Assembly: GCF_000020385.1 (NCBI RefSeq)
Contig: NC_010814.1
Span: 3,810,001-3,842,000, forward strand
Length of the DNA: 32,000 nt
Source: Trichlorobacter lovleyi SZ
GTDB lineage: Bacteria > Desulfobacterota > Desulfuromonadia > Geobacterales > Pseudopelobacteraceae
Direction: 5' to 3'
Shown: in pieces, positions 2,663 through 22,102 of the stretch
Numbering within the stretch: position 1 is the stretch's first letter
Layout: every line of letters starts with the position of its first letter
The notes under the pieces: model-generated
What the model saw: only the letters and a program-made list of their open reading frames with translations
The model's database searches: none
Told to the model about the DNA's origin: nothing
Position numbers and translations under genes: made by a program

Positions 2663-3874
2663 ATGGGACTCTTTCTTGATCTGTTCGAACGCCTCGGCCT
2701 GTTTGCCATCCTGTTCATATTCCTGATCCGTTTCAAGGCCTTTAAACGTCTGCTGACCGGCATCGCCAGCAGGAGGGACAAGCTGGTGCTGGCGTTCATG
2801 TTCGGCGGGGCCGGCATCATGGCCACCTACAGCGGCTTTGCCTTTCACGGCGCCATAGCCAACCTGCGCGGGGTGGCGGTGGCCCTGGCCGGTATCCTGG
2901 GCGGACCGCTGGTCGGTCTGGCGGCCGGACTGGTGGCGGGCATCCACCGCTATGCCATTGATCCTGCCGGACTGACCTCCCTTTCCTGCGGCATCGCCAC
3001 GGTCCTGCAGGGGGTGGTGGCGGCCTGGCTCTATCCCCGCCTGCGCCGGGTCGAATACGACATCTTTGCCGCCTTTGCAGTGGGTGCTGTCAATGAGATC
3101 CTGAAGATGACGCTGATCCTGCTGCTGGCCAAACCGTTCTCCTCGGCCCTGCACCTTGTGACGGTGCTGGCCTTTCCCTCGATCCTGGTCAACGGACTTG
3201 GCAACGCCGTCTTTGTCCAGCTGATCTCCACCGTCTTCCGTGAGCAACAGCTGGCCAAGGCGGAGATCCGGGCATTGCAGGCCCAGATCAACCCCCATTT
3301 CCTCTTCAATGCCATCTCCACCATCATCAGCTATACCCGCACCGACCCGGCCATCGCCACCAATCTGCTGGTAAAACTTGCAGAGTTCTTCCGCAACAGC
3401 ACCGCCACCACCGAGCGCGAGGTGCCGCTCTCGGTTGAGCTGCAACACTGCGAGGCCTATCTGGCGATTGAGCAGGCCCGTTTTGAGGAGCGGGTCCGGA
3501 TACACTACCAGATCGATGAGGACGCCCTGGACTGCCCGGTGCCACCCTTGATCCTGCAACCGCTGGTGGAAAACGGCATCCGCCACGGTATCCTGCCGCG
3601 GGATGCAGGCGGGGATATCACGATCCAGGCCCGCAAAGAGCAGCAGAACCTGCATATCAGGGTTGCGGACAACGGGGTCGGCATGGACCAGGCCAAGCTG
3701 TCCGGCCTGTTGACAACCCGGCAGCATCCCACCGGCAAAGAGGGGCTGGGGATTGCCCTGAAAAACGTCAATGCCCGCCTGGTGGCACTCTATGGCCGCA
3801 AACGGGCCCTCAGGATCGAGAGCAGCCCCGGCGCCGGCACAACCATCTCCTTTTCCATCCCGGTGACCGCATGA
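2663..3874 (+). CDS. LytS/YehU-type sensor histidine kinase (5TM-LYT membrane domain, no GAF domain)
   Basis: About 190 aa of hydrophobic N-terminal region runs directly into QINPHFLFNAISTI (LytS-family His_kinase box). HATPase_c motifs follow (LQPLVENGIRHG, ADNGVGM, GLGIALKNV). AGGAG lies 5 nt upstream of the ATG. Confidence 0.9.
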   Translation: MGLFLDLFERLGLFAILFIFLIRFKAFKRLLTGIASRRDKLVLAFMFGGAGIMATYSGFAFHGAIANLRGVAVALAGILGGPLVGLAAGLVAGIHRYAIDPAGLTSLSCGIATVLQGVVAAWLYPRLRRVEYDIFAAFAVGAVNEILKMTLILLLAKPFSSALHLVTVLAFPSILVNGLGNAVFVQLISTVFREQQLAKAEIRALQAQINPHFLFNAISTIISYTRTDPAIATNLLVKLAEFFRNSTATTEREVPLSVELQHCEAYLAIEQARFEERVRIHYQIDEDALDCPVPPLILQPLVENGIRHGILPRDAGGDITIQARKEQQNLHIRVADNGVGMDQAKLSGLLTTRQHPTGKEGLGIALKNVNARLVALYGRKRALRIESSPGAGTTISFSIPVTA

Positions 3875-4626
3875 ACATCACGGTCTTTCTGATCGACGAC
3901 GAGGCCCCTGCCCGGCGGGAACTGCGCTACCTGCTGGAGCAGCTGCCGGAACTTGAGATTGTCGGCGAGGCCGCCACCGCAACGGAAGGGCTGCGTCTGC
4001 TGCGCCAGCTGAAGCCCCGGTTGCTGTTTCTGGATATCCAGATGCCGGGACTGACCGGGATTGAACTGTCCCAGATCCTCCAGGAACTGCCGGAACGCCC
4101 GCTGGTGGTCTTTTCCACCGCCTACAGCCAGTTTGCGGTGGATGCCTTCAATCTTGAGGCGTTTGATTATCTGCTCAAGCCGGTCACCCTGGAGCGGCTT
4201 GGCAAGACCATCGACAAGGTACGCAAGCAGCTGGCTGCAACGCCGCCCGGCCCTGAAAGACCCCTGCCTGAACCGCCCCATGACGACCGCAAGTGGGTAG
4301 CGGCCCGCCAGGGCAGCAAGATCCTGCCGATAGCACCGGAGAGTATTGTTTTTGTCCGCTGTACCGAAGCGGTCACCCATATCCATACCGCCACGCGGAT
4401 CTACCAGACCAGCCACACCATTACCGCCCTGCAGGAACAGCTTGAGCCGTACGCCTTCTTCCGTGCCCATCGCAATTCACTGGTCAACCTCAACTGTATA
4501 CTGGAGATCATCCCCTGGTTCAGCGGCAGCTGCAAACTGGTGATGAACGACCCGGCCCGGACCGAGATCCTGGTCAGTCGCTACCATGCCAGGGATCTCA
4601 AGAAACACCTGATCTCCCAGGTCTGA
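3871..4626 (+). CDS. LytTR-family response regulator (REC + LytTR DNA-binding domain)
   Basis: ATGA start/stop overlap with the kinase gene. The receiver is canonical (FLIDDE, LLFLDIQMPGLTG, FSTAY, DYLLKP). The C-terminal LytTR domain reads FFRAHRNSLVNLNCILEI. Confidence 0.9.
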   Translation: MNITVFLIDDEAPARRELRYLLEQLPELEIVGEAATATEGLRLLRQLKPRLLFLDIQMPGLTGIELSQILQELPERPLVVFSTAYSQFAVDAFNLEAFDYLLKPVTLERLGKTIDKVRKQLAATPPGPERPLPEPPHDDRKWVAARQGSKILPIAPESIVFVRCTEAVTHIHTATRIYQTSHTITALQEQLEPYAFFRAHRNSLVNLNCILEIIPWFSGSCKLVMNDPARTEILVSRYHARDLKKHLISQV

Positions 4627-4901: not shown

Positions 4902-6125
4902 ATGTCACAGATCCATGACGAGCAGGAAAGCATCTCAGCAGGTGGTTTCAGCAGGCGTGACTTCATCAAGACCGCAGCAGTGGTTGGTGCCGGCGTGCTG
5001 GCAGTACAGGCCGTGGGCAGCCCCAGGGAGGCCAATGCCGCTGAAGAGGCAAAGAAGGCCGCCACCGGAGCAACGGCAGCCGCAACAGGCAAGAGCGCCC
5101 TCAAGCTGGATCAGGTCTTAAAGGTTGCCCGTGAGAAGATGTATCCGCGCTGCCGGGTCTGTCCGGAATGCGACGGTGTGGCCTGTTCCGGCGAGGTCCC
5201 CGGCATGGGCGGCATCGATTCAGGCAAGGCCTTCCGCAACAATCTGGCCGCACTGGCCAAGTATGAGCTGAATATGCGGACCTTCCACGAGATCAAGAAG
5301 CCGGATACCTCGCTGACCCTGTTCGGGGTCAAACTGTCCATGCCGATCCTCTCCGGCATTACCGGTGGTGTGACCTATAACATGGGGCTGCAGGGCAAGG
5401 TTTCGGAAGAGGAGTACATCGAGGGGATCATTGCCGGTTGTATCCAGGCCGGTACGATCGGTTTTGCCGCTGACGGCATCGGTGATCCGCTCTCGGTCTA
5501 TCAGACCCGCCTGCAAACCGTGGCAAAATACCGCGGCAAGGCAGCAGGTCAGATCAAGCCCCGCACCCAGGCCGAGATCATCGAGCGGATCCGCCTGCTG
5601 GAAGCTGCCGGGGCACCGTTCTTTGCCATTGATATCGACTCGGCAGGACGGGCCTCACGGGCCCTGCCCGGCAAGACCGTGGAACCCAAAAACCTGAAAC
5701 AACTGCGTGAACTGGCGAACGCAACCAAAATGCCGTTCATCATCAAAGGGATCATGACCGTGGATGAAGCCAAACAGGCGGTTGACGTCGGCGCAGCCGG
5801 GATCGTGGTTTCCAACCACGGTGGACGGGTGATGGACCATACCCCCGGTACCGCCCAGGTGCTGGCGGCCATTGCCGACAAGGTCAAGGGGGATATCGTT
5901 ATCCTTGCTGACGGCGGTGTCCGTTACGGTGCCGATGTGCTCAAGATGCTGGCCCTGGGGGCTGATGCGGTGCTGGTGGGGCGTCCGCTGGTGCGTGGAT
6001 CGGTTGGCGGCGGACCGGAAGGTGTAGCCCTGATGTTGAAGAAGATGCAGGGTGAGCTGGTGGTTGCGATGACCCTGACCGGTACCGCTGATGTCAAAAA
6101 GGTCAGCAGGAGTATCCTGGTCTAA
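4902..6125 (+). CDS. FMN-dependent alpha-hydroxy-acid dehydrogenase/oxidase family protein with twin-arginine (Tat) signal peptide
   Basis: ATG 4902 is preceded by AAAGGAGG. The N-terminus MSQIHDEQESISAGGFSRRDFIKTAAVVGAGVLAVQAVGSPREANA carries the Tat consensus SRRDFIK, a hydrophobic region and an AxA site. FMN_dh hallmarks are present: VVSNHGGRVMD (catalytic His/Arg) and DGGVRYGADVLKMLALGADAVLVGRP. A Cys cluster CRVCPECDGVAC follows the signal peptide. Confidence 0.85.
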   Translation: MSQIHDEQESISAGGFSRRDFIKTAAVVGAGVLAVQAVGSPREANAAEEAKKAATGATAAATGKSALKLDQVLKVAREKMYPRCRVCPECDGVACSGEVPGMGGIDSGKAFRNNLAALAKYELNMRTFHEIKKPDTSLTLFGVKLSMPILSGITGGVTYNMGLQGKVSEEEYIEGIIAGCIQAGTIGFAADGIGDPLSVYQTRLQTVAKYRGKAAGQIKPRTQAEIIERIRLLEAAGAPFFAIDIDSAGRASRALPGKTVEPKNLKQLRELANATKMPFIIKGIMTVDEAKQAVDVGAAGIVVSNHGGRVMDHTPGTAQVLAAIADKVKGDIVILADGGVRYGADVLKMLALGADAVLVGRPLVRGSVGGGPEGVALMLKKMQGELVVAMTLTGTADVKKVSRSILV

Positions 6126-6152
6126 TTACGATAGCGGTGCAAGGAGCGACCC

Positions 6153-7133
6153 ATGTACAGAACACTCATGCTGATGATCTGCCTGCTGCTGACCCTGTCC
6201 GGTCTGTCATTTGCCACCCATGACAAGGCCCTGCTGTATGGGGGGGCTGGCCAGGGGCGGGTCATTTTTGACGGCAGACTGCACGCCTCCAAGGGGATGG
6301 TCTGCAACGATTGCCACAGTGCCATCTTTGCCACCCACAAGAAGGCCCTGATCACCATGCAGAACCATTTTGAGGATAAGGCCTGCTTTGTCTGCCACAA
6401 CGGCAAACGGGCCTTCAGCGATTGTGATTCCTGTCATCGCAAATTCGAGGCAGCCAGGACAGTGGTCAAGCTGTATGGTGCCGCCAGTGTGGTGGACAGC
6501 CTGATCAATCCCCACAAGGCAGCGGTTGAAAAGGCCACCGGCTACAGCCTTGAGATCGTCAAGAGCAATGCCGGCAAAGGTCTGATTGATCTGGCTGACG
6601 GCAAGTGCGATGCCTCACTGGCCTCTGCCTCGGTGGAGACGGTTGCCAAGGGGGCCAAGGCGGCCGGACGGGAGCTGGATACCACCAGGCTGCAGCTGCA
6701 TGCCATTCAGATGGATCAGGTGGTCTTTGCGGTCAATCCGTCCAACACGGTCCAAAGCCTGACCTTCCCGCAGCTGAAGGATATCCACACCGGCAAGATC
6801 ACCAACTGGAAGCAGCTGGGCGGCGCTGATCTGCAGATCAAGGTGGTCACCGACACCCTTTCCAGCGCCACCCGCGGCCTGATCAAGCAGGCGGTCCTGA
6901 AGAATGAGGAATATCTCAAGGAAACCCTGGCAGTCAATGTGGCCACCATCAGTGACGAGGTGGCTAAAGACCCTGCCGCCATTGGTGGCTTGGGGGCCGG
7001 CTTTGTCAAGGCGGGGGTAGTGGTGGTCAAGACGGACAAGATCGAACGTCCGCTGGGGCTGATCACGGTCGGCCCGCCCTCTGAAAAGGTGCGTAAGGTG
7101 ATTGAGGCCTACAAGGCTGCCATAGCCAGGTAA
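6153..7133 (+). CDS. Secreted triheme c7/c3-type cytochrome fused to a PstS-like (PBP_like_2) periplasmic binding domain
   Basis: AAGGAG lies 6 nt upstream of the ATG, and the Sec-type signal is MYRTLMLMICLLLTLSGLSFA. Three CXXCH motifs (CNDCH, CFVCH, CDSCH) fall within about 65 aa, arranged like the PpcA/c7 family. The C-terminal ~230 aa carry PstS-family signatures (SNAGKGLIDLADGKCDASLAS; LTFPQLKDIHTGKITNWKQLGGADLQIKVV). Confidence 0.8.
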   Translation: MYRTLMLMICLLLTLSGLSFATHDKALLYGGAGQGRVIFDGRLHASKGMVCNDCHSAIFATHKKALITMQNHFEDKACFVCHNGKRAFSDCDSCHRKFEAARTVVKLYGAASVVDSLINPHKAAVEKATGYSLEIVKSNAGKGLIDLADGKCDASLASASVETVAKGAKAAGRELDTTRLQLHAIQMDQVVFAVNPSNTVQSLTFPQLKDIHTGKITNWKQLGGADLQIKVVTDTLSSATRGLIKQAVLKNEEYLKETLAVNVATISDEVAKDPAAIGGLGAGFVKAGVVVVKTDKIERPLGLITVGPPSEKVRKVIEAYKAAIAR

Positions 7134-7151: not shown

Positions 7152-7346
7152 ATGTTTGGATTTGGTATGCCGGAACTGATCCTGATCCTGGTGATCTGCC
7201 TGGTGGTATTCGGACCGGGCAAGCTGCCTCAGCTGGGCTCGTCGCTGGGGGGCGCCCTCAAGGGTTTTCGCCGGGCAACGGAAGAACCGCTGAGCGTTGA
7301 TACCGTAGCCCGGGGTGCTGAGGCCGGTTCCCGGGAGGAGGCCTGA
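7152..7346 (+). CDS. tatA: Twin-arginine translocase subunit TatA/E
   Basis: The 64-aa sequence MFGFGMPELILILVICLVVFGPGKLPQLGSSLGGALKGFRRA is the canonical TatA TM helix, FGP hinge and amphipathic helix. GGAGAG lies upstream of the ATG. Confidence 0.9.
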   Translation: MFGFGMPELILILVICLVVFGPGKLPQLGSSLGGALKGFRRATEEPLSVDTVARGAEAGSREEA

Positions 7347-8159: not shown

Positions 8160-9341
8160 TCAGTTGATACGGAATTTGCTGACCATCTGCTGCAGTTCTG
8201 CCGAGGATGCTGCCATCTGGGCAGCAGCGTTTCTGGTTTCATCAGCTCCGTGGGCCGCCTCACGGATCACCGAGGTAATGCCGTGCATGCTGCCGGAGAT
8301 GGCCACCGTTGAATTTGATTGCTGGGCAGCGGCAGAAGCGACATGGGACACCTGACTGAGCAGTTCACCGATCTTTTCACGGATACTGCCGATCGCCTCA
8401 CAGGAAAGCCGTACCCCTTCGCCCCCTTCATGCACGCTGCCGGCACTCTGTTCCATGGAACCGACCACGGCCCGCACATCCCGCTGCAGGGCAGTGATAA
8501 TTCCCTGGATCTCACGGGTGGCACTGGTGGTCCGTTCTGCCAGATGACGGACCTCATCGGCCACCACGGCAAAACCACGTCCCTGATCGCCTGCCCGGGC
8601 AGCCTCAATGGCGGCATTCAGGGCCAGCAGGTTGGTCTGATCGGCAATGTCACTGATGGTGGAAAGAATATCGCCGATCTGGTTGGAGGTGGCACCAAGA
8701 TTCTTGACTGCAGAGGTGGTCTCGGTCATGACCCCTTCAATACTGCCCATGACCACCGACATACCGGAAATAATCCGTTCTCCCTCCTTCGACACCTGCT
8801 CGGCCTCGGTGGCCATGGCCGACATGGTGTCGCAACTGCAGGCGATCTCACTGCTGACGCTGGCCATACCATCGGCTGACTGGCTGACCGCATCGGACTG
8901 GGAGGCAGCACTGCCGGTGCCGTCGGCAATGCTTTCAGCCGTCTGACGGAGCCGCTCCGATGCTGAAGCAACACTGTCGGTTGTCTGCCGGATACCGGAG
9001 ATCATGCCCTGCATGGCGGTCTGCAGGGTAGCGATGGAACGGATGATGGCGCTGATCTCGTTATTGCGCTTGGCCGAAATGGTCTGGCGCAGATTGCCCT
9101 CGGTCATCTCCTTCAGATACCCCAGAATCCGCTGCAGGGCTTCATTGACCGACCAGAACAGCAGGCCGCCGAAGAACGCACCGGCTGCCACAAACAGGGC
9201 AGTGGTCAGAATTGAGTAGGTCAGGGGCAGTGAGCGGCCGGCCCCGACACCAAAGATGATGCAGAGGCTGTAACAGAAGCAGAGCAGGTAAATACGGGTC
9301 TTGATCTTTAAACCCAAGTATTTATCGAGGAAGAAGCTCAT
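8160..9341 (-). CDS. Methyl-accepting chemotaxis protein (two TM helices, HAMP, MA domain; essentially no periplasmic domain)
   Basis: AAGGAG lies upstream of the ATG. The highly conserved MCP signalling hairpin is present: [40 protein letters not shown]. The two N-terminal TM segments are separated by only a few residues. Confidence 0.9.
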
Positions 9342-9405: not shown

Positions 9406-11415
9406 CTACTTTTTTGCAGCGGCCACCTCAACCGCCACATCATAGAGGGTACTACCCTCACCGCAGTCAGTCAGGCGCTGTGAGGTCAGGGCATTGATAC
9501 CACGCCCTGATTGGCTGCGGTCAAGCCAGTAGACCCCTTCACTGACCACGGTACCGGCTGGCACCTGTTCCGTTACCTGCAGCGCCAGCTCAATTGAGCC
9601 AAACCCATTGTAAACAGATACTGATTGCTCATCGCACAACTGCCGGGCAGCGGCATCAGCAGGGTGTATCAGCAGCGTCGGTTCTCCCCGCTTCTGCAGC
9701 AGGTCGTCACGCTCATTGAAGCTGGAGTTAAGGCTGTACAGGCTGACGCCTGGCTGCAACCGCAGCGGAAACCGGTCTGCCTCGGCATGGGTGGGCAGCA
9801 GGCAGGGCAGCGGCTGCGATTCGCGCTCATTGCGCAGCTCAATCTTTCCTGAGGGTGTCAACCAGGGGCCCCGTGGCGAGGTAGGGGGTGTCATCAGCAC
9901 CGGTTCTCCCTGCCGCAGCTGTTCCGTGATTGCAGCATCCCGCCAGCCATTGGGCTCAGCCAGCAGCTGATCAATCAGGTCATCTGCCGACTGCCTGAAG
10001 AACGGTTCACCCCAGCCCAGCCCCTCTGCCAGCAGGCAAAAGGTATCCCAGTTGGATTTTGCCTCACCCACCGGCGGGATTACCCTACTGCAACGTTGAG
10101 CCTGATAACTGCCGTAACTGCGGTACAGATCAGGATGTTCCAGCGAACTGGTGGCAGGCAGGACAAGATCGGCATAGCGGGCAGTATCAGTCATGAAACG
10201 TTCATGCACCACCGTGAACAGGTCCTCCCGCTCCAACCCTTTGATGACGGCATTCTGGTCCGGCGCGATGACTGCCGGGTTGGAGTGATAGACATACAGG
10301 CTCATCACTTTGGGATCATTCAGATTATTCAGGGCTGCACCCAGCTGGTTCATATTCACGATCCGGGTCGGGCCGGCCATGAAATCCTCACGGGTGACCA
10401 GCTGCAGCGGGAAGGCTGCTCCGGTGGAGGTGCCGCAGAACAGGCCTGCGCCTGGCCGCTGCCAGGCCCCGCTGACAGCGGGCAAGGCGGCAATGCAGCG
10501 AACCGTCATAGCGCCGTTGCCATAGCGGGTCAAACCACCCCCGACCTGGATCAGGGGCGCCTTGGCTGCAGCATAGGCCCGCGCCAGATCACGGATTGTA
10601 TCAGCCGGAAGCCCGCAGATGGCAGCCATCTGCTCAGGCCTGCAATCCGGCAGAACCTGGCCACAAAGTTCCTCAAAACCAATCACGTTGTCACGGATAA
10701 ATGCCTGATCCAGCAGCCCTTCTGCCACCATCACCTGCAGCATCCCCAGGGCCAGGGCGCTGTCACTGCCCGGCTTGACGATGATCGCCCGGTCCACGGC
10801 CTGACAGGTAGGAGTCTGGTAGGTATCAATAGCCCAGACCTGGGCCCCCTGTTTCCGGGCCGCCTGGCTGGCAGCCATGCTGTGGATACTGGTGGCAGCG
10901 GCGTTCAGCCCCCAGAGGATAATCAGGTCACTCTTGCTGCGCTCTGCAGGATCAAGGGCCGGGGTATCCCCCATCACCGCCTTCCAGCCGTAATCCTTGG
11001 CAGGGGTACAGATGGTGCGGGCCAGACGGCTGGCCCCCAGTTTATGGAAGAAGGGATGGCCGCTGTTACGCTGCACCAGCCCCATGGTACCGGCATAGGA
11101 ATAGGGCAGGATTGACTCGGCACCATACTGCGGAATGATCTCCTGCCAGCGGGAGCAGATCCGCTGCACCGCCTCGTCCCAGCTGATCGGAGTAAACCGG
11201 CCGCTCCCCTTGGGGCCGGTCCGCAGCAGTGGTCTGGTCAGACGCTGAGGCGAGTGGACGGTCTGCTGGTACTGCCGCATCTTGCCGCAGATAAAGCCCT
11301 GAGTAATCGGATGATGCGGGTCAGCCTCAATCTTGATTGCCCTGTCATTTTCAACAGTTACCAACAGGCCGCAGGCATCTGGACAGTCATAGGGGCAGAC
11401 AGAACGGTAGCGCAT
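9406..11415 (-). CDS. Molybdopterin (bis-MGD) oxidoreductase family protein, cytoplasmic, substrate unknown
   Basis: I prefer the start MRYRSVCPYDCPDACGLLV (N-terminal 4Fe-4S Mo/W-bis-MGD-type Cys motif) at 11415, which has AAGGAG upstream. The ORF-track start at 11478 adds 21 aa with no SD. A C-terminal molybdopterin-binding barrel is present (LLIHPADAAARQL...VPAGTVVSEGVYW). There is no Tat signal. Confidence 0.85.
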   Translation of the reverse strand: MRYRSVCPYDCPDACGLLVTVENDRAIKIEADPHHPITQGFICGKMRQYQQTVHSPQRLTRPLLRTGPKGSGRFTPISWDEAVQRICSRWQEIIPQYGAESILPYSYAGTMGLVQRNSGHPFFHKLGASRLARTICTPAKDYGWKAVMGDTPALDPAERSKSDLIILWGLNAAATSIHSMAASQAARKQGAQVWAIDTYQTPTCQAVDRAIIVKPGSDSALALGMLQVMVAEGLLDQAFIRDNVIGFEELCGQVLPDCRPEQMAAICGLPADTIRDLARAYAAAKAPLIQVGGGLTRYGNGAMTVRCIAALPAVSGAWQRPGAGLFCGTSTGAAFPLQLVTREDFMAGPTRIVNMNQLGAALNNLNDPKVMSLYVYHSNPAVIAPDQNAVIKGLEREDLFTVVHERFMTDTARYADLVLPATSSLEHPDLYRSYGSYQAQRCSRVIPPVGEAKSNWDTFCLLAEGLGWGEPFFRQSADDLIDQLLAEPNGWRDAAITEQLRQGEPVLMTPPTSPRGPWLTPSGKIELRNERESQPLPCLLPTHAEADRFPLRLQPGVSLYSLNSSFNERDDLLQKRGEPTLLIHPADAAARQLCDEQSVSVYNGFGSIELALQVTEQVPAGTVVSEGVYWLDRSQSGRGINALTSQRLTDCGEGSTLYDVAVEVAAAKK

Positions 11416-11493
11416 GGCAGTAACTCCTTGCAGTAGGGCTTGGGTTAAAAGATAGTAGCCTGCCTGTTTTAACAACACAATTCCGAAATGAAT

Positions 11494-12565: not shown

Positions 12566-13198
12566 ATGATCATGAAAAGCATTGATGCAAAAAGCTTCAT
12601 CATCGGCATCCTGGTGACCCTGCTAACCGTCTTTGCCGCAGGAGCGGCCCATGACGCCTTTGCTCCCCATGAGATCCAGCGCCTGAAGCAACTGGCCTCC
12701 TACCTGCAGGATGACGGCAACCTCAACATGGGCAACCATAAGATTATCATGCTCGGTTCCAGCATTTACGACGACGGCTCCCAGGGGGGCGGCCTGATCA
12801 TCCGCGGCGGCGCCAACCGGGTCCATCTGCATGGTAATCCGATCATTTACGACCAGCCGGAATTCAGGCAGGCAACCATCAACATCGGCAGTAACCTGAA
12901 CATGGGCAGCAGGAAGATCATCATGCAGGGCTCGTCCATCTATGATGACGGCTCACAAGGTGGTGGTTTGATCCTGCGCGGCGGCGCCAACCGGATTCAC
13001 CAGCACGGCAGTTCCATTTTCTACGACAACCCGGAATTCAGGAATACGTTGACCCTGAACAACGACCTGAACATGCAGAATAAAAAGATCATCATGCTGG
13101 GTTCATCCATCTTTGACGACGGTTCCCAGGGAGGCGGCCTGCAGATCCACGGCGGCGCCAACCGGATTCATACCTTCGGCCAGATGCTGCCGCATTAA
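12566..13198 (+). CDS. Signal-anchored/secreted protein of unknown function built from three tandem 57-58-aa repeats
   Basis: AGGAGG lies upstream; the start is ATG 12566 or 12572. A hydrophobic N-terminus (FIIGILVTLLTVFAAGAA) is followed by three copies of NLNMGxxKIIMxGSSIYDDGSQGGGLxIxGGANRxHxxG...YDxPEFR. I recognise no family. Confidence 0.7.
   Translation: MIMKSIDAKSFIIGILVTLLTVFAAGAAHDAFAPHEIQRLKQLASYLQDDGNLNMGNHKIIMLGSSIYDDGSQGGGLIIRGGANRVHLHGNPIIYDQPEFRQATINIGSNLNMGSRKIIMQGSSIYDDGSQGGGLILRGGANRIHQHGSSIFYDNPEFRNTLTLNNDLNMQNKKIIMLGSSIFDDGSQGGGLQIHGGANRIHTFGQMLPH
12725..13198 (+). repeat. Three in-frame tandem DNA repeats (174, 171 and ~129 nt) inside the 12566-13198 CDS
   Basis: The units begin with aacatg at 12725, 12899 and 13070 and are clearly similar at the nucleotide level (e.g. 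...gacggctc(c/a)ca(g/a)gg(g/t)gg(c/t)gg..., ggcggcgccaaccgg(g/a)t(c/t)ca). The last unit is cut short by the stop codon. Confidence 0.85.
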
Positions 13199-13284: not shown

Positions 13285-14232
13285 TCACCCGACCAGCAGC
13301 CGAGTCCCCACCCCGATCAGCGCCGTCAGACCGTACACCAGCCACATCAGTTGCACCGCCTGCAGGATATGCCGTGCCTGCAACGGCTGCAGCGGATCTC
13401 CCATAAACGGTCTGGTGCTGGGCTGGCCAAAGTAGCTGTTCACTCCTCCCAGTCGCACCCCCAGGGCACCGGCCACCGCCGCCTCAATCTGGCCGCCGTT
13501 GGGGCTGGGGTGATTGTGGCGATCCCGTCGGAAGATCCGCAAGGCATTCCCCGGATGTAACCTTAGCAGCAGGGCTGCGGGGATAACCAGCAAGGCAGTC
13601 AGCCGGGCAGGCAGCAAATTGGCCAGGTCATCCAACCGGGCTGATCCCCAGCCAAACTGCAAATAACGCTCGTTTTTGTAGCCAAAGGTGGAATCCAGCG
13701 TACTAATCGCCTTGTAGGCCAGTGCCCCCAGCGGCCCCCCTAGACAGGCAAAAAGCAAGGGTGCCGTACAGCCATCCACCGTGTTTTCCGCCACCGACTC
13801 CACCGCAGCACGGGTCACCTCACCTTCATCCAGCTGCTCCGTGTCCCGCCCTACCAGCCAGCTTACCCGCTGCCGCGCTGCTGCCAGATCACCAGCCATC
13901 AGTGGCCGATACACCGCCAGGGCATGGTCATGCAGGGAACGGGTTGCAAAGCAGGTATAGAGCAGCAGGATTGCTACGATATCTCCTGCCAGTGGATGCA
14001 GCAGAGCAGCACCCTTTAACAGACCAAAGCCGATCAGGGTCGTACTGCCCACCACCCAGACAACGGCAACAATACCAGCCAGTTTTGGATTGGGGACAAG
14101 GCGACGTAAAGGCGCTTCAGCACGCTGCGCCAGCCAGCCGATCCCCTGCACCGGATGGGGCAACCAGCGGGGATCTCCCAGCAGCAGATCCAGCAGGATC
14201 GCCAGGAGTGTCTGTTGGTAGAGGGGGATCAT
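13285..14232 (-). CDS. cbiB: Adenosylcobinamide-phosphate synthase
   Basis: The N-terminus LLAILLDLLLGDPRWLPHPVQGIGWL is the CobD/CbiB signature. It is a multi-TM protein of typical length (~315 aa), with an ATGA overlap to the upstream cobD::cobQ gene. Confidence 0.9.
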   Translation of the reverse strand: MIPLYQQTLLAILLDLLLGDPRWLPHPVQGIGWLAQRAEAPLRRLVPNPKLAGIVAVVWVVGSTTLIGFGLLKGAALLHPLAGDIVAILLLYTCFATRSLHDHALAVYRPLMAGDLAAARQRVSWLVGRDTEQLDEGEVTRAAVESVAENTVDGCTAPLLFACLGGPLGALAYKAISTLDSTFGYKNERYLQFGWGSARLDDLANLLPARLTALLVIPAALLLRLHPGNALRIFRRDRHNHPSPNGGQIEAAVAGALGVRLGGVNSYFGQPSTRPFMGDPLQPLQARHILQAVQLMWLVYGLTALIGVGTRLLVG

Positions 14233-16820
14233 AGCCGCAGCAACCGATAGATTTCCCGCAGATCCAGACTGTTACGCACCGTATCCGCCAAGCGGTCCAG
14301 GGCCGGTTCCAGATCATAGCAGGTCCGGATCTGGCCATCGCTCTGCCAACCCTTACGTTGCCGCAGCCGGTCAAGCAACCAGCGCCGGAATGGGTCTGCA
14401 TCAAAGATCCCATGCAGGTAGCTGCCCCAGATCAGACCGTTGGCACTGCCTGCACCGAGCAGCCTGCCATCCTGTCCGGTGATCAGTGGTTCAATCCCTT
14501 CTGCAGTGGTGATGCCGTGGTGGATCTCGTAGCCGCTCAGCAGGCAGCCGGAGGTGAGATGACAACAGCGGGTCTGCAGGGTGGTCTTTTCTTCTGCCAT
14601 GACCGTATTGATCGCCAGCAGCCCCAATCCTTGTTGTTGCCCAGCCCCGGATTCAATGGCATGGGGATCGCTGATCTGCTGGCCCAGCAACTGAAAACCA
14701 CCGCAGATGCCGATGATCTCAGTCTGGCCAGCCTGGGCCAGCTCAAGGACGGCTGCTGCCAGTCCGGTCTGTTGCAGCCAGGCCAGGTCAGCCAGGGTAT
14801 TCTTGCTGCCGGCCAGGATCAGGGCATCAGGCTGGCCAAGTTTCGCTACTGACCGGACGATCCGCAGGCCCACATCCGGCTCCAGCCCTAACGGATCAAG
14901 GTCGGTAAAGTTGGAGATGTGCGGCAGGTCCAGCACTGCAATATCAAGCAGTTGGCTATCCTTTGCCCCGGCAGCCAGCAACCCCTGCTTGAAGGAGACC
15001 GAATCCTCCTCCGGCAAGCCCAGGTTATGCAGATAGGGAATGGTACCCAGCACCGGCTTATTGGTGTGAAAGCGGGTGTAGGCCAAGGCATCACCCAGCA
15101 GGCTTGCATCGCCCCGGAAGCGGTTGATCACAAACCCGGCCACCATGGCCCGTTCCGCCTCGCTTAGAACCTCCATGGTCCCCACAAAGGAGGCAAACAC
15201 GCCGCCCCGGTCGATATCACCCACCAGCAGCACCGGCGCATGGGCATAGCGGGCCATGTTCATATTCACAATATCATTGGCCTTCAGGTTCACCTCTGCC
15301 GGACTGCCCGCCCCTTCCAGCACCATGATCTGATGTTCAGCAGACAGTTCATCGTAGCAACGTCGTACTGTTTTAAAGATCTCAGCCCGTTGCTCTGCAT
15401 AGTCCTTAAAGTGGGTGGTGCCAATCGCCTTGCCGCAGAGGATCACCTGGGAACCGGTCTCACTATTGGGTTTCAGCAGCACCGGATTCATCCGTACGTC
15501 CGGGTCAAGGCGACAGGCCTGGGCCTGCAGCACCTGGGCCCGTCCCATCTCACCGCCGTCACGGGTCACAAAGGAGTTGAGCGACATGTTCTGGGCCTTG
15601 AACGGCGCCACATCATAGCCATCCTGCTTCAAGATCCTGCAGAGCGCAGCGGTCAGGATACTCTTGCCGGCGTTGGAGCCGGTGCCCTGAAACATGATCG
15701 CCGGGGTTTGACGCTTCACAATTCGTGGCCGTGATGGTGCCAGGATACTCTGCAAAACAGTGTAGAGCCGCTGCTGCTCCGGTTCAGTCCGCACCGCCAG
15801 ACGGAAGTAGCGGCCATCCAGCCCGCTAAAATTCCCGCAGACCCGCAGGGCGATCCCCTGTTGCAGGGCCAGATCAGCAAGCTGCTGTGCAGCAAGGGTG
15901 GGATGATCAAGCCGCAGCAGCAGGAAGTTGGCCTCAGCGGGGTAGACTGTCAGGCCCGACAGGCTGGACAGCAGCGCCGCAAGAGCTTCCCGCTGCCCTG
16001 TCACAAAGCTGCGGCTGTGCTGCAGGTACTCTGTATCCTGTACTGCCCGCACCCCCACGGCCTGGGCCAGGCTGTTGACGGTCCAGTTGGGCAGATAGTT
16101 TTTAAGCTGCCGGATATGCGCTGCAGCGCCGGTCAGGTAGCCCAGACGCAGGCCGGGAATGGCATACAGCTTGGTTAAAGATGTCAGGATCAGGATATTT
16201 TCAGGCCGGTTCTGCTGCAGGCTCTGACTGGCATCGGTAAAGCCGATGAATGACTCATCCACCACAAACAGGGTGGCTGGATGCTCCGCTGCTATCCGGC
16301 GCAGGCTGGCAGCATCAAAGGTGCGTCCGGTGGGGTTGTTGGGCTGGCCCAGCAGCACCAGCTGGGCTGGTTTCAGGAACGGTACAAGGCAGGTTGGATC
16401 AAGCAGAAAACCGGTATCAGGAGAGAGAAAAAACTGCTCGATGTTCAGACCGGACAGCCGGGCCGGTTCCTCATAATCGGCATAGCTGGGCACCGCTAAC
16501 AGCAGTGAGGAGCAACCCAGCGCACGGGGCAGCAGGTGCAGCAGTTCTGTGGCTCCGTTACCCACCAGGATCTGGTCAGCCGGAATCCGGTGCAGGGCGG
16601 CCAAGGCCTCAACCAGTTCAGTTGCGTCCGGGTCAGGGTAATGGATCAGATCGCTGATCCGGCTTTCAATCAGCGGGCGCAGCCAGTCCGGCGGCCCCAG
16701 CGGGTTGATGTTGGCGGAGAAGTCCAGCAGTTCTCCCTGCGGCAGGCCTGCTGCCTGACTCAAGGCACGCAGATTGCCGCCGTGGCTATGTCGTACCGGC
16801 TGCCGGGTCTGGCCAGTCAT
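14229..16820 (-). CDS. cobQ: Fusion protein: threonine-phosphate decarboxylase (CobD, class I/II aminotransferase fold) + cobyric acid synthase (CobQ/CbiP)
   Basis: The N-terminal ~360 aa (HGGNLRALSQAAGL...DFSANINPLGPP...LTSLTKLYAIPGLRLGY) are CobD/HisC-like with the PLP-Lys context. From about aa 365, AIMFQGTGSNAGKSILTAALCRILKQDGYDVAPFKAQNMSLNS begins the CobQ ATP-binding domain. The C-terminal GATase is IIGICGGFQLLG...GYEIHHG...GSYLHGIFD. It is one uninterrupted 863-codon ORF. Confidence 0.85.
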   Translation of the reverse strand: MTGQTRQPVRHSHGGNLRALSQAAGLPQGELLDFSANINPLGPPDWLRPLIESRISDLIHYPDPDATELVEALAALHRIPADQILVGNGATELLHLLPRALGCSSLLLAVPSYADYEEPARLSGLNIEQFFLSPDTGFLLDPTCLVPFLKPAQLVLLGQPNNPTGRTFDAASLRRIAAEHPATLFVVDESFIGFTDASQSLQQNRPENILILTSLTKLYAIPGLRLGYLTGAAAHIRQLKNYLPNWTVNSLAQAVGVRAVQDTEYLQHSRSFVTGQREALAALLSSLSGLTVYPAEANFLLLRLDHPTLAAQQLADLALQQGIALRVCGNFSGLDGRYFRLAVRTEPEQQRLYTVLQSILAPSRPRIVKRQTPAIMFQGTGSNAGKSILTAALCRILKQDGYDVAPFKAQNMSLNSFVTRDGGEMGRAQVLQAQACRLDPDVRMNPVLLKPNSETGSQVILCGKAIGTTHFKDYAEQRAEIFKTVRRCYDELSAEHQIMVLEGAGSPAEVNLKANDIVNMNMARYAHAPVLLVGDIDRGGVFASFVGTMEVLSEAERAMVAGFVINRFRGDASLLGDALAYTRFHTNKPVLGTIPYLHNLGLPEEDSVSFKQGLLAAGAKDSQLLDIAVLDLPHISNFTDLDPLGLEPDVGLRIVRSVAKLGQPDALILAGSKNTLADLAWLQQTGLAAAVLELAQAGQTEIIGICGGFQLLGQQISDPHAIESGAGQQQGLGLLAINTVMAEEKTTLQTRCCHLTSGCLLSGYEIHHGITTAEGIEPLITGQDGRLLGAGSANGLIWGSYLHGIFDADPFRRWLLDRLRQRKGWQSDGQIRTCYDLEPALDRLADTVRNSLDLREIYRLLRL

Positions 16821-18401: not shown

Positions 18402-20306
18402 ATGAAACGGAGTAGACAGAAGTATGCAGTAGCATTGGGGCTGATCCTGGCAGTCTGTGGCTCAGCAATGGCAGAGGAAAAAACCACCCAACTGGGCGAG
18501 GTGGTGGTGACCGCCACCCGTGACGAGGTGCCGATTGAGCAGGTGGGCAGCTCCATCACCGTGGTCACGGCCAAGGAGATCGAGCAACAGCAGAAACGGA
18601 CCGTGGCCGACGCGCTGCGGATGGTGCCGGGACTGGACCTGGTCCGCACCGACAGCTTTGGCGGCACCACCGCCGTGTTCATGCGCGGCGCCAAATCAGA
18701 GCATACCCTGGTGCTGATTGACGGCATCCAGATCAATGACCCGTCATCAACCGGCGGCGGCTACAACTTTTCCAATCTGACCACCGACAATATCGAGCGG
18801 ATCGAGATTTTGCGCGGCCCCCAGAGCACCCTCTACGGCTCCCATGCCATTGGCGGCGTGATCAACATCATCACCAAACGGGGGGATGGCAAACTGAAAG
18901 GCTTCCTGTCTGCAGAGGGGGGCTCCTTTGCCACGGCCCGGGAAAGCGCCGGTCTCAATGGCGGCAATGACCTGCTGCAGTACTCATTAAGCGTCTCCCG
19001 GCTGGATACCGGTGGTGTTTCCGCAGCGGGTGAGCGGTATGGCAACGTTGAACGGGACGGCTACCAGAACACGGCAGTGGCCGGACGGCTGGGCATCACC
19101 CCGACCACCAATTCGGAGATAGACCTGACCCTGCGCTATGACCGTTCCCGCACCTCGGTTGACAACGGTGGTGGTGCCGGAAAGGATGACCCGAACCACG
19201 TCATGAAGTCCGACGAGCTGTTTTTCAGGACACAGGGCTGGCTCTCGCTGTTTAACGGGTTGTGGGATCAAAAGCTGGGTGTATCGTTCAGCGACATCAG
19301 CTGGCGTGATGATAATGACCGCGACAGCGCCCATCCCAACGATCTGCTGCGCAGCTCGTTCCACGGCCAGAGTGTCAAGCTGGACTGGCAGCACACCCTG
19401 AAGCTGCACAAGACCACCACTCTGGTGGTTGGCGCCGAGACCACCGAAGAAAACGGCAAGTCGGATTACTATTCCGAGAGCATGTTTGGCCCCTACACCA
19501 GCACCTGGGATGAGCGCTTTGCCCGTACCACCGGCGTCTACCTGCAGGACCAGCTCAATCTGTTCGATGCCTGGTTCTCCACACTGGGCGTTCGGGTGGA
19601 TGACCACAGCAAGTTCGGCACCGAGGCGACCTATCGCTTTACCACCGCCTATCTGATCAAGCAGACCGACACCAGACTGAAAGGCAGCTACGGCACCGGC
19701 TTCAAGGCACCTTCCCTGTACCAGCTCTACTCAAGCTACGGCTCACCGGACCTCAAGCCGGACAAGAGCATCGGCTGGGATGTTGGTGTAGAACAAGGGT
19801 TGCCGTTTATGAAGACCACCCTGGGGGCAACCTGGTTCAGAAATGAATATTCACAGATGATTGATTTTGATATGACTACCTGGAAATACACCAACGTTGC
19901 CAAGGCGCATACCCACGGGTTAGAGCTGACCGCAGCCCTGCAACCGGTGGATGACCTGACCCTGAAGGCTGCCTACACCTATCTGGAAACCAGGGACGAC
20001 ATCAGCGGCAAGCAGCTGGTACGCCGCCCCAAGAACAAGGCGAGCTTTGACATCAACTACAGCTTCCTGAAAAAGGCCAACATAAACCTTGGGGTGATCT
20101 ATGTGGGTACCCGCTATGCTGACACGGCAAACACCCAAAAGATGAAGGATTATATGCTGGTTAACCTGGCCGGTTCCTATGATCTCACCAAAAACCTGCA
20201 GCTCTTCGGGCGGGTTGATAACCTGTTTGACCGCCAGTATGAAGAGGTGGCCGGTTATGGCACCCCCGGCATTGGTGCCTATGGCGGCGTAAAGGTATCG
20301 TTTTAG
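18402..20306 (+). CDS. btuB: TonB-dependent outer-membrane receptor, probably for cobalamin/cobinamide
   Basis: Signal peptide, then a TonB box and plug (GEVVVTATRDEVPIEQVGSSITVVT...VPGLDLVRTDSFGGTTAVFMRGAKSEHTLVLIDGIQINDP). The C-terminal beta-barrel ends in GGVKVSF. B12 specificity is inferred from the upstream riboswitch and the downstream btuFCD-like genes. Confidence 0.85.
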   Translation: MKRSRQKYAVALGLILAVCGSAMAEEKTTQLGEVVVTATRDEVPIEQVGSSITVVTAKEIEQQQKRTVADALRMVPGLDLVRTDSFGGTTAVFMRGAKSEHTLVLIDGIQINDPSSTGGGYNFSNLTTDNIERIEILRGPQSTLYGSHAIGGVINIITKRGDGKLKGFLSAEGGSFATARESAGLNGGNDLLQYSLSVSRLDTGGVSAAGERYGNVERDGYQNTAVAGRLGITPTTNSEIDLTLRYDRSRTSVDNGGGAGKDDPNHVMKSDELFFRTQGWLSLFNGLWDQKLGVSFSDISWRDDNDRDSAHPNDLLRSSFHGQSVKLDWQHTLKLHKTTTLVVGAETTEENGKSDYYSESMFGPYTSTWDERFARTTGVYLQDQLNLFDAWFSTLGVRVDDHSKFGTEATYRFTTAYLIKQTDTRLKGSYGTGFKAPSLYQLYSSYGSPDLKPDKSIGWDVGVEQGLPFMKTTLGATWFRNEYSQMIDFDMTTWKYTNVAKAHTHGLELTAALQPVDDLTLKAAYTYLETRDDISGKQLVRRPKNKASFDINYSFLKKANINLGVIYVGTRYADTANTQKMKDYMLVNLAGSYDLTKNLQLFGRVDNLFDRQYEEVAGYGTPGIGAYGGVKVSF

Positions 20307-20309
20307 ACA

Positions 20310-21140
20310 ATGCGACGTATTTTTCTCTGTATATTCTGCCTGATCCTGCTTGCGGTGGCCCCCGGTTTTGCCGGGGAGCCGCCCAGGCGGATTGTCTCGC
20401 TGGCACCCAGCCTGACCGAGCTGGCCTGCGCCCTGGGGCTGGAGAAAAACCTGGTGGGGGTGACAACCTTCTGCGACCGGCCATCCTCGATCAAAGGCAA
20501 GCCCACCGTGGGGGGACCGGCCAACCCGTCGTTAGAGGCGGTGCTGAACCTGAAGCCGGATGTTGTGCTGGTGGATGAAGAGGGGATCGGCTCCAAACTG
20601 GCCAAACGGCTGCAAAAACTGGGGATCAGGACTGTCACCTTTCACGGTTCCCGCCTGGACAAACTGGCACCGGCAGTACGGCAATTGGGTACTGATCTTG
20701 GGGTACAACAACCGGCCAACCAGTTGGCAAGCCGGATTGAGCAGTCGCTGAAAGCGCTTAAAACCGCTGCACCGGTCAAGACCATGTTTGTGATCTGGCC
20801 TGACCCGCTGGTGGCTGCCGGTCCCGGTTCCATGCTGGATGATGCCATGAAGCTGTCCGGTATGACTAATATCGCCAGTGATGCCCGTTCCGGTTATCCC
20901 CGGCTTTCACTGGAGGCGGTCATCACCCGCAACCCGCAGCTGATCATTGCAGGCCAGGGTGAAAAACTGGCCGGACCGATGAAGCGGATGCTGGGTCACC
21001 TGAATTCACTGGATACTGTCAAACAAGGCCGGGTCTGCATGGTCAGCGATGCCCTCTATCGTCCCGGCCCCCGCATCCCGGAAGGAATCGCCGAGCTGCG
21101 CCATTGCCTTGAGCTGACCCGTAAAGGCCAGCGCCCGTGA
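20310..21140 (+). CDS. btuF: Periplasmic ABC substrate-binding protein (BtuF/cluster-A type, cobalamin or siderophore class)
   Basis: A signal peptide is followed by RIVSLAPSLTELACALGLEKNLVGVT and PDVVLVDEE, typical of BtuF/FhuD-like binding proteins. The start lies 4 nt after the btuB stop. Confidence 0.75.
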   Translation: MRRIFLCIFCLILLAVAPGFAGEPPRRIVSLAPSLTELACALGLEKNLVGVTTFCDRPSSIKGKPTVGGPANPSLEAVLNLKPDVVLVDEEGIGSKLAKRLQKLGIRTVTFHGSRLDKLAPAVRQLGTDLGVQQPANQLASRIEQSLKALKTAAPVKTMFVIWPDPLVAAGPGSMLDDAMKLSGMTNIASDARSGYPRLSLEAVITRNPQLIIAGQGEKLAGPMKRMLGHLNSLDTVKQGRVCMVSDALYRPGPRIPEGIAELRHCLELTRKGQRP

Positions 21141-22102
21141 AACGCCACCCCATGTTCACCATGCTGGGCTGCCTGGTGCTGGTCCTGCTGCTGTCGCTCT
21201 CCCTTGGTCAACAGACCATCAATCCCTTTCAGCTTGATCCGCTGCAGCTGAAGATCGTGCTGGACCTGCGCCTGCCCCGCATTGTGGTGGCGTTGCTGAT
21301 GGGGGGATCACTGGGGGTGGCCGGAGCGATTCTGCAAGGGGTCTTCCGTAACCCGCTGGCTGATCCCTATGTGCTGGGCACCTCCAGCGGTGCTGCCCTG
21401 GCAGCGGCCTTTGGCCTGCTGGCCACCCAGGGGACCGGCATCTGGCTGGTGCCGCTGCTGGCGCTGACCGGCGCCCTGGTAACCAGCGCCGTGGTGGTTT
21501 CGCTGGGGAGGGATGCCTGGGGGGTACGGGCAGAACGGTTACTGCTGGCCGGGGTGGGGATCGGCTTTTTCCTGTCTGCCATCCTGATGCTGGTCATGTC
21601 TCTGGCCCAGGCTGACGGGGTCAAACGGGCACTGCTCTGGATGGCCGGCGATCTGGCCGGAGCAGACTGGTCGGTGGTTCCCGTGGCCAGCCTGTTGATG
21701 TTGATCGGTTTTTTCCTGGCGCTGGCGCGGCGACGTGGCCTGAACGCCCTGGCCCTGGGGGATGAAGTTGCCTTTGGATTGGGGCTGGAACCGGGGCGGG
21801 AACGGACCTTGCTGGTGCTGGCCGCCTCCTTGCTAACCGCTGCAGCGGTTGCCCTGGGTGGTATTGTCGGCTTTGTGGGGCTGATGGTACCCCATGCCGT
21901 ACGTGCCCTGGTGGGTGCCGATGCCCGCCGGGTGCTGCCGCTGTCTGCCCTTGGGGGCGGCATGCTGCTCTGCCTGGCTGATACGGTCGGGCGTAGCGTA
22001 CTGCCGCCGGTGGAGATCCCGGCCGGGGTGGTCACTGCCCTGATCGGCGCCCCCTGGTTTCTGATCATGCTGCGCCGGGCCACCAATGGAGGTATGCGAT
22101 GA
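21137..22102 (+). CDS. btuC: FecCD-family ABC permease (BtuC-like)
   Basis: GTGA overlap with the btuF stop. FecCD hallmarks are present (LRLPRIVVALLMGGSLGVAGAILQGVFRNPLADPYVLGTSSGAAL ... IPAGVVTALIGAPWFLIML). Confidence 0.8.
   Translation: MKRHPMFTMLGCLVLVLLLSLSLGQQTINPFQLDPLQLKIVLDLRLPRIVVALLMGGSLGVAGAILQGVFRNPLADPYVLGTSSGAALAAAFGLLATQGTGIWLVPLLALTGALVTSAVVVSLGRDAWGVRAERLLLAGVGIGFFLSAILMLVMSLAQADGVKRALLWMAGDLAGADWSVVPVASLLMLIGFFLALARRRGLNALALGDEVAFGLGLEPGRERTLLVLAASLLTAAAVALGGIVGFVGLMVPHAVRALVGADARRVLPLSALGGGMLLCLADTVGRSVLPPVEIPAGVVTALIGAPWFLIMLRRATNGGMR

Follow-up and report, generated by a model that had tools for sequence, protein, structure and literature searches.

A fused triheme cytochrome c7 and PstS-like binding protein is one form of a conserved three-gene module with an FMN-dependent dehydrogenase

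The stretch of DNA analyzed here (the window) comprises 32,000 nucleotides (nt) of the Trichlorobacter lovleyi SZ genome (contig NC_010814.1, positions 3,810,001 to 3,842,000). On its forward strand, positions 6153-7133 hold a gene of 326 amino acids (aa) plus stop codon, in which a c7-type triheme cytochrome (c7) is joined to a periplasmic binding protein (PBP) with a PstS-like fold. The gene was delimited from its open reading frame (ORF), from Pfam and NCBIfam matches, and from fused orthologues. Its ATG at 6153 lies 27 nt downstream of the stop codon of a co-directional gene for a flavin mononucleotide (FMN)-dependent dehydrogenase of 407 aa (FMN_dh; 4902-6125, + strand), and a ribosome-binding site (AAGGAG, 6141-6146, + strand) was read 6 nt 5' of this ATG. 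Eighteen nt behind the fusion gene starts a gene for a TatA/E paralogue of 64 aa (7152-7346, + strand; Pfam TatA_B_E, E 2e-16), which is overlooked by ORF lists with a cut-off of at least 80 aa and had escaped the first-pass annotation. A TatA gene directly follows the module in five loci, namely the window, the T. lovleyi locus L035, and L007, L011 and L023; the genomes with TatA in the matching position are T. lovleyi and one Geobacter, one Oryzomonas and one Desulfuromonadales metagenome-assembled genome (MAG). The short gap, the ribosome-binding site before the start codon and the TatA gene that follows in these five loci are the reasons for reading FMN_dh and the fusion gene as an operon.

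The fusion protein and the adjacent flavoenzyme

The fusion protein starts with a Sec-type signal peptide (aa 1-21, 6153-6215, + strand), recognized by its hydrophobic N-terminus and with a predicted cleavage site at ...LSFA/THD. The signal peptide has no lipobox cysteine and its position is conserved among the fused homologues. It is followed by the c7-type triheme domain (aa 22-98, 6216-6446, + strand), which carries the heme motifs CNDCH (aa 51-55, 6303-6317), CFVCH (aa 78-82, 6384-6398) and CDSCH (aa 91-95, 6423-6437). The linker RKFEAARTVV (6438-6467, + strand), identified by comparing fused with split joints, leads from the last heme motif to the first strand of the PBP domain (aa 104-326, 6462-7130, + strand). 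The first-pass annotation, made from the sequence alone, had described three heme motifs with c7 spacing behind a Sec signal, and the ORF, the motifs and the strings it quoted from the PBP half, LTFPQLKDIHTGKITNWKQLGG at aa 202-223 and TLSSATRG at aa 235-242, read as it had reported. The profile search that it had called for placed both halves above the curated cut-offs. Pfam Cytochrome_C7 (PF14522) matched aa 37-96 with an E value of 3.3e-10 and 40.1 bits against a cut-off of 24.8, the NCBIfam model for the c7-type triheme domain (TIGR04257) gave 48.2 bits against 40, and Pfam PBP_like_2 matched aa 107-286 with an E value of 3.9e-21 and 76 bits against 27. Also as described there, no genes of ATP-binding cassette (ABC) or tripartite ATP-independent periplasmic (TRAP) transporters flank the fusion gene in the window, where the nearest transporter is a major facilitator superfamily (MFS) gene about 3.6 kb upstream.

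Among solved structures, the heme part was best matched by the c7-type domains of GSU1996 (3ov0, E 1e-23). The conservation of alignment columns was analyzed in 39 fused and split c7 sequences. All 39 share, without variation, the three CXXCH motifs together with His44 and His72. The first of the two N-terminal distal histidine positions of c7 cytochromes (F-x-H-x-x-H) is an invariant glycine in all 39 (FDGRLH, 6273-6284), and Met69, in the 'TM' position known from the GSU1996 domains (6357-6368), is present in 28/39. Thus, there are only two invariant distal histidines for three hemes, where classical PpcA-type c7 cytochromes have three, and the score against the PpcA-type equivalog NF043011 was 21.4 bits compared with a cut-off of 120. 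One of the hemes probably has His/Met ligation, or else a sixth position that is variable or open. Loading of the protein with three hemes is predicted from the motifs.

The fold of the PBP half was assigned from the PBP_like_2 match, an AlphaFold2 (AF2) model and a Foldseek search. The predicted local distance difference test (pLDDT) score of the model exceeded 90 over aa 101-326, and the top Foldseek matches were the small S-type PstS structures 4exl, 1twy, 9l8j and 4gd5 (probability 1.00, 20-26% identity, E 1e-16 to 1e-18, template modelling score ∼0.7-0.8 on the target). The best sequence matches among solved structures were small PstS proteins as well, 4gd5 and 4q8r. The score against the PstS family model TIGR02136 was 83.2 bits, far from the cut-off of 206.6. 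The structure comparison proposed in the first-pass annotation was thereby carried out at the level of the fold, and the cleft was compared through sequence alignment to phosphate-bound 4gd5. At the four helix-N-terminal segments that form the anion site, GSTS of 4gd5 corresponds to GAAS, GSSAG to NAGKG, ASRD to ASAS, and SREDGSGTRD to TDTLSSATRG. The latter is the signature at aa 233-242 (6849-6878, + strand), which aligns with the SR-x-x-GSGTR(D) phosphate loop of PstS. Of the PstS phosphate ligands only Ser112, Ser238, Thr240 and Arg241 are kept, and Asp234 takes the place of the phosphate-binding arginine; this aspartate and the other substitutions are invariant in 55 sequences. The published account of S-type PstS proteins emphasizes an arginine together with an Asp-Arg triad centered on Thr/Ser (PMC13614923), and of this phosphate site the Ser-x-Thr-Arg part alone survives in the PBP.

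The family has 36 invariant positions, 13 of which fall within the cleft segments. They are enriched there (13/23 positions, against 23/203 elsewhere; Fisher p = 2e-6), and this concentration suggests that the cleft is under strong selection for something other than phosphate. The suggestion of the first-pass annotation that the ligand may not be phosphate is supported by the TIGR02136 score and by the substituted cleft positions, and a non-phosphate ligand in the cleft is likely. A further family pattern, used in the locus search, is the GKCD motif (6600-6611, + strand) with Cys152 (codon 6606-6608). This single cysteine is invariant in all 55 aligned members (55/55), orphan PBPs included (described below), and by homology it would be placed away from the cleft. 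Sequence identity of the PBP across phyla is 50-68%. In an exhaustive profile search very few sequences were left of this tight family after clustering at 50% identity, and they are embedded among small (∼250 aa) PBP_like_2 proteins with more than 4,000 representatives. When 38 small PBP_like_2 proteins were aligned, their pocket motifs were variable and the PstS arginine occurred in none. Judged by these alignments, the PBP derives from small PstS-like proteins, with most of the aligned phosphate ligands lost and the cleft conserved.

The start of the flavoenzyme was set at ATG 4902, because the resulting 407 aa agree with the 403-407 aa of its orthologues. The protein matches Pfam FMN_dh with 207 bits (cut-off 24.9) and Pfam TAT_signal, with the twin-arginine (RR) motif (4953-4958, + strand) in SRRDFI. 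It also contains a conserved four-cysteine motif, CxxCxxCxxxxC (CRVCPECDGVAC, 5151-5186, + strand; Cys4 motif). Among the best 120 homologues the RR motif is present in 117/120, the Cys4 motif in 118/120 and SNHGGR in 119/120, the exceptions being truncated fragments. In a profile search against solved structures the C-terminal half aligned with glycolate, lactate and hydroxy-acid oxidases and with flavocytochrome b2, and Lys282, His306 and Arg309 (in IIKGI and SNHGGR) aligned with the catalytic Lys236, His260 and Arg263 of HAO1. By these alignments the flavoenzyme belongs to the alpha-hydroxy-acid oxidase superfamily. With 108-157 bits against cut-offs of 376-645, it stays far below the models of the specific equivalogs LldD, L-lactate oxidase and MftD. 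The Cys4 segment occupies the N-terminal region that normally supplies the substrate-binding tyrosine in alpha-hydroxy-acid oxidases, and the profile search found it in no solved structure. In the AF2 model the barrel was confident and the Cys4 loop had a pLDDT of ∼50. The motif may be an iron-sulfur or zinc site. The RR signal, together with the adjacent TatA paralogue, leads to the prediction that the flavoenzyme is exported by the twin-arginine translocation (Tat) system.

Fused and split forms across genomes

A protein search returned at least 27 full-length clusters (at 90% identity) with both Pfam domains, which include proteins of Geobacter pelophilus, Anaeromyxobacter diazotrophicus and, at 94% identity, T. 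lovleyi. It also returned, in the hundreds, PBPs of ∼250 aa that stand alone and share 55-68% identity with the PBP half. Many of these come from contigs equal in length to those of FMN_dh matches, which suggests that the two genes are on one contig. A sample of 34 unique loci, window included, was assembled from gene contexts together with a scan in which each species was represented by one genome. In 22/34 of them the FMN_dh gene and the c7/PBP gene or genes were syntenic, adjacent and co-directional. These loci belong to four bacterial lineages, the Geobacterales, Nitrospiraceae, Anaeromyxobacteraceae and Betaproteobacteria (Burkholderiales/Rhodocyclales), and they support the earlier proposal of a link between the fusion protein and the neighboring flavoenzyme.

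The c7-PBP protein was fused in 10/22 syntenic loci: the window, two Geobacter MAGs, G. pelophilus, Geomonas edaphica, two Anaeromyxobacteraceae, two Burkholderiales-type MAGs and Propionivibrio dicarboxylicus. In 11/22 two genes were present instead, c7 with 99 aa and, behind it, PBP with ∼250 aa that include a signal peptide. Split loci were found in Geomonas limicola, Geomonas silvestris, Oryzomonas, four Nitrospiraceae, one Usitatibacteraceae MAG and one Desulfuromonadales MAG. At one further locus (L017) the PBP gene precedes FMN_dh near a contig end and no c7 gene is visible. In the Usitatibacteraceae MAG (L015, 4492-5796) FMN_dh is broken over several reading frames next to intact c7 and PBP genes, reflecting either a pseudogene or errors of the MAG assembly.

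Comparison of the joints showed how the two states relate. In the fused proteins a linker of 12-19 residues connects CHRK(F) to the first PBP strand, VKLxGAAS. In the split forms this place is taken by a stop codon and an intergenic gap, followed by a ∼25-aa signal peptide, so that the linker stands where these forms have the PBP signal peptide. In a neighbor-joining tree of the PBP domains the fused forms fell into at least four clades that were interleaved with split and orphan forms, and both the fused and the split state occur within the genus Geomonas. The fusion arose repeatedly, as the intergenic region disappeared together with the signal peptide of the PBP. Repeated fusion or fission of this kind is a classical sign of joint action and implies that c7 and PBP function as a single physical unit. 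The fusion, which the first-pass annotation had singled out as unusual, is therefore real and not unique, as the same two genes lie separate and adjacent in about half of the loci.

When 23 module loci were compared all against all, four recurrent gene families emerged and no more. FMN_dh and c7/PBP were present in 23/23 and were the sole genes to recur in all. Beyond the kinase, regulator and TatA genes no other recurrent neighbors, be they transporters or enzymes, were detected in these loci, and neither in them nor in the window does pstCAB or any ABC permease or ATPase gene lie beside the PBP gene. The fusion is hence one form, the Rosetta-stone form, of a conserved three-gene module in the order FMN_dh, c7, PBP. 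The system as a whole is real and widespread, and it would amount to a redox pair of a periplasmic flavoprotein and a cytochrome c, to which a PBP-fold component is accessory.

Function of the module and its surroundings

FMN_dh, c7 and PBP probably constitute one functional periplasmic redox unit. With distinctly less assurance, we lean towards a fuller mechanism in which c7-PBP is a partner devoted to the flavoenzyme that accepts its electrons and handles the ligand. The flavoenzyme would fold and acquire its cofactor in the cytoplasm and would then be exported by the Tat system, a route to which the RR signal and the adjacent TatA gene point. The c7-PBP protein would be exported by the Sec system and, to judge from its motifs, would receive three hemes. 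In the periplasm the flavoenzyme would oxidize an anionic, 2-hydroxy-acid-like substrate and pass the electrons to the c7 hemes, from which they would enter the periplasmic cytochrome pool. The PBP would bind a non-phosphate ligand, most likely the substrate or product of the enzyme, and would serve in docking by holding the cytochrome against the flavoenzyme. A bolder version, which we consider doubtful, is a three-component periplasmic dehydrogenase of a new class, in which closure of the repurposed PstS fold on its ligand gates or positions the covalently attached triheme c7, so that the module would be an electron-transfer switch under ligand control. In this version one heme site may be open or lack a histidine ligand, and the Cys4 motif may provide an extra metal center.

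Several observations weigh against this mechanism. The case for a complex and for electron transfer rests on synteny and fusion. In 12/34 loci the PBP is an orphan, with no FMN_dh or cytochrome gene within 6 kb, which implies that it can function in the absence of the other two components or can at any rate be maintained. The orphans thereby count against any model centered on the enzyme. No conserved partner of them was found across lineages, and in Nitrospiraceae their neighbors were lineage-specific ones only. The middle of the FMN_dh barrel remained unaligned, and neither active-site tyrosine of the classical alpha-hydroxy-acid oxidases could be aligned. The PBP cleft was mapped through the alignment to 4gd5 and not through coordinates. 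In the AF2 model of the fusion the c7 domain had low confidence, as hemes are not modelled, so that the model carries no information on inter-domain orientation. Two further points concern the gene neighborhood and fit a sensing role: a two-component system adjoins the module in Geobacterales, and each of the three nearest outgroup small PBPs (P0241, P0242 and P0243), which have different pocket motifs, adjoins a gene for a methyl-accepting chemotaxis protein (MCP).

These two points are at the heart of an alternative explanation as a signaling device, in which the PBP, by itself or joined to c7, would serve in the periplasm as a ligand and/or redox co-receptor for the adjacent LytS-type kinase or for a chemoreceptor, and the FMN enzyme would be no more than the regulated target or the generator of the signal. 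PBPs that feed sensors are known, for instance PstS with CtpL in chemotaxis to inorganic phosphate (Pi) and AioX with AioS-AioR in the response to arsenite. The outgroup contexts (L037 4620-5384, L038 3701-4465, L039 1522-2280 and L040 490-1242, beside MCP genes) come from three short metagenomic contigs only and hint that the wider family of ∼250-aa PBPs serves chemoreceptors. In the window a LytS-type histidine kinase (2663-3874, + strand; Pfam 5TM-LYT, His_kinase and HATPase_c) and a LytTR response regulator (3871-4626, + strand; also from Pfam matches) are encoded upstream of FMN_dh. This pair lies directly upstream of the module in 12/23 loci, those of Geobacterales plus one Nitrospiraceae locus, and MCP genes occur near it in five (the window, L035, L007, L003 and L021). 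The kinase of the window has 403 aa and no GAF domain, and the orthologues at L001, L003 and L005 have 560-570 aa with a GAF domain between 5TM-LYT and His_kinase. The copy at the T. lovleyi locus L035 also has 403 aa.

The signaling explanation is nevertheless improbable. Kinase and regulator are absent from the flanks of the Anaeromyxobacter, betaproteobacterial and most Nitrospiraceae loci, where FMN_dh-c7-PBP is intact, and the PBP belongs to the operon of the enzyme and not to the genes of the regulators. Kinases of the 5TM-LYT type have almost no periplasmic surface. The MCP gene of the window (8160-9341) is on the other strand and beyond an OmpH gene, and its product, judged by the N-terminal sequence, appears to contain a pair of hydrophobic segments close together and to lack a periplasmic domain. 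It is probable that the LytS-type kinase regulates the module in Geobacterales.

Equally improbable is that the PBP has no small ligand and is a scaffold or maturation factor, the PBP fold docking or chaperoning the flavoenzyme in the manner of MxaJ. The order of dehydrogenase, cytochrome c and PBP-fold protein resembles mxaF-mxaJ-mxaG, and the very high conservation of the PBP across phyla fits a conserved protein partner. Set against this, Tat substrates are exported already loaded with their cofactors, which makes a periplasmic cofactor chaperone unneeded, and permanent fusion to an electron carrier favors a role in steady-state turnover over one in assembly. In addition, conservation is centered on the cleft equivalent to that of PstS, and there are orphan copies without the enzyme.

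Very improbable is that the protein is a genuine phosphate-binding PstS that carries a cytochrome, for example for redox-linked scavenging or sensing of phosphate. The fold, the PBP_like_2 match and the retained Ser-x-Thr-Arg of the phosphate loop would agree with it, and low-affinity S-type PstS proteins without the canonical aspartate exist (PMC13614923). A PstS function is effectively excluded by the curated cut-off of TIGR02136, by the residue substitutions (an invariant aspartate for the arginine, and GSTS, GSSAG and ASRD replaced) and by the gene context, in which pstCAB is not nearby and the family is linked to the flavoenzyme rather than to pst genes. Finally, the first-pass annotation had warned that halves found as separate genes in related genomes could point to an assembly or sequencing frameshift, and they are indeed separate in Geomonas limicola, Geomonas silvestris, Oryzomonas and Nitrospiraceae, but the chance of such an artifact is negligible, as it is ruled out by the fused frame in at least 27 protein clusters and in 10 independent loci, one of them on a complete T. 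lovleyi chromosome, and because the fused forms carry a short linker where the PBP signal peptide would be, which a single frameshift cannot yield.

The remainder of the window was also inspected. It starts inside a gene for an FccA-like flavocytochrome c (1-1276, + strand; TIGR01813, 497 bits). At the T. lovleyi locus L035 (2994-6221) the full gene encodes 590 aa with Cytochrom_c3_2 and is preceded by genes for a DcuB C4-dicarboxylate transporter and a sigma-54 activator. The region thus looks like an organic-acid redox neighborhood. Between the flavocytochrome c and kinase genes the window has an MFS_3 (EntS-like) transporter gene (1336-2559, + strand); it is not at that position in L006 and in the T. 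lovleyi locus L035, where the kinase gene directly follows the flavocytochrome c gene. In a molybdopterin oxidoreductase encoded downstream (9406-11478, - strand; domains Fe4S4, Molybdopterin and Molydop_binding) no Tat signal is visible. Its start is probably further downstream, as the listed GTG gives 690 aa compared with 669 aa in T. lovleyi. A secreted protein of 210 aa (12566-13198, + strand) has three internal repeats (...NLNMGNHKIIMLGSSIYDDGSQGGGLIIRGGANRVH...) and no Pfam match. At the corresponding position T. lovleyi has a gene of 208 aa, likewise without a Pfam match. An 863-aa protein (14229-16820, - strand) joins a class I/II aminotransferase (CobD/CobC-like) to CobQ (CbiA + GATase_3). 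Its gene adjoins a CobD/CbiB gene (13285-14232) and a cluster encoding a TonB receptor, Peripla_BP_2, FecCD and an ABC ATPase (18402-22827). No cobalamin riboswitch was detected at the Rfam gathering score, and Rfam and tRNA scans of the window were empty.

Significance and comparison with known systems

Searches of the open-access literature turned up no account of the module or of a c7-PBP fusion, and none of a periplasmic FMN 2-hydroxy-acid (lactate/glycolate) dehydrogenase from bacteria, an absence that is weak evidence of novelty. The database names of the module proteins are generic or, for the PBP, refer to phosphate transport components, and hundreds of entries named 'phosphate transport system substrate-binding protein' are probably misnamed. 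The Tat-signal, Cys4-containing branch of the FMN alpha-hydroxy-acid oxidase family is large and has no known substrate. PBPs are usually understood as feeders of transporters or sensors. If the proposed mechanism is true, a PstS-derived PBP that has lost its phosphate ligands and was repeatedly fused to an electron carrier would be a clear example of a respiratory enzyme that has recruited a binding protein. The hosts of the module include metal reducers, dechlorinators, syntrophs, Nitrospirota and Anaeromyxobacter. In these organisms the module could be an unrecognized extracytoplasmic route for the oxidation of an organic acid-like substrate, with electrons passing directly to the periplasmic cytochrome pool, and such a route would be relevant to extracellular electron transfer and bioelectrochemistry.

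Each part of the module resembles a known system. With the small S-type PstS proteins (4EXL, 4GD5/4Q8R, 1TWY and 9L8J, Sll0540) the PBP shares the type II Venus-flytrap fold, a size of ∼230-250 aa and the motifs DI(H/Y)TGKITNWKxxGG and S-x-T-R. It differs from them in its association with a cytochrome, to which it is fused or beside which it is encoded, in its link to a flavoenzyme, in the absence of pstCAB and in the aspartate at the position of the phosphate-binding arginine. The c7 half resembles the domains of the dodecaheme 'nanowire' cytochrome GSU1996 and related c7 proteins (TIGR04257; 3OV0, 1RWJ) in its three CXXCH motifs within ∼45 residues, in the c7 spacing and in the methionine of the 'TM' position. 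Unlike GSU1996 and PpcA, it is a single c7 domain joined to a non-heme protein, and it has the invariant glycine at the first distal histidine position.

At the level of the whole module, PBP-dependent sensors (PstS-CtpL, AioX-AioS-AioR) are comparable as transporter-independent PBPs encoded beside signaling genes, just as the outgroup PBPs are found beside MCP genes. The difference is that the constant partners here are an enzyme and a cytochrome, with a kinase in about half of the loci. MxaJ is a member of a different PBP family (SBP_bac_3-type) and is not known to be fused to the cytochrome. The domain described here is PBP_like_2 and its neighbor an FMN enzyme, which places it outside the MxaJ/XoxJ type. 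Nevertheless, mxaF-mxaJ-mxaG and xoxF-xoxJ-xoxG likewise form an operon of a periplasmic dehydrogenase, a c-type cytochrome acceptor (cytochrome cL) and a transporter-less PBP-fold protein (PMC12276312). MxaJ has been shown to be a chaperone that inserts pyrroloquinoline quinone (PQQ) into MxaF of the PQQ methanol dehydrogenase (PMC12276312). With PQQ instead of FMN and a PBP-fold protein that inserts it, the likeness is one of analogous gene arrangement and not of homology.

Flavocytochrome b2, the yeast L-lactate:cytochrome c oxidoreductase, as well as the two-subunit flavocytochromes c FccAB and PchCF, share with the module the combination of a non-cytoplasmic flavin dehydrogenase and a dedicated heme carrier. 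In function, flavocytochrome b2 and the mxaF-mxaJ-mxaG arrangement are the nearest analogies. In flavocytochrome b2 the flavodehydrogenase domain even belongs to the same superfamily as FMN_dh (E 1e-36 to 1e-37). The module differs from it in having a separate triheme c7 polypeptide instead of a fused b5 domain, and in its Tat signal, its Cys4 motif and its third component, the PBP.

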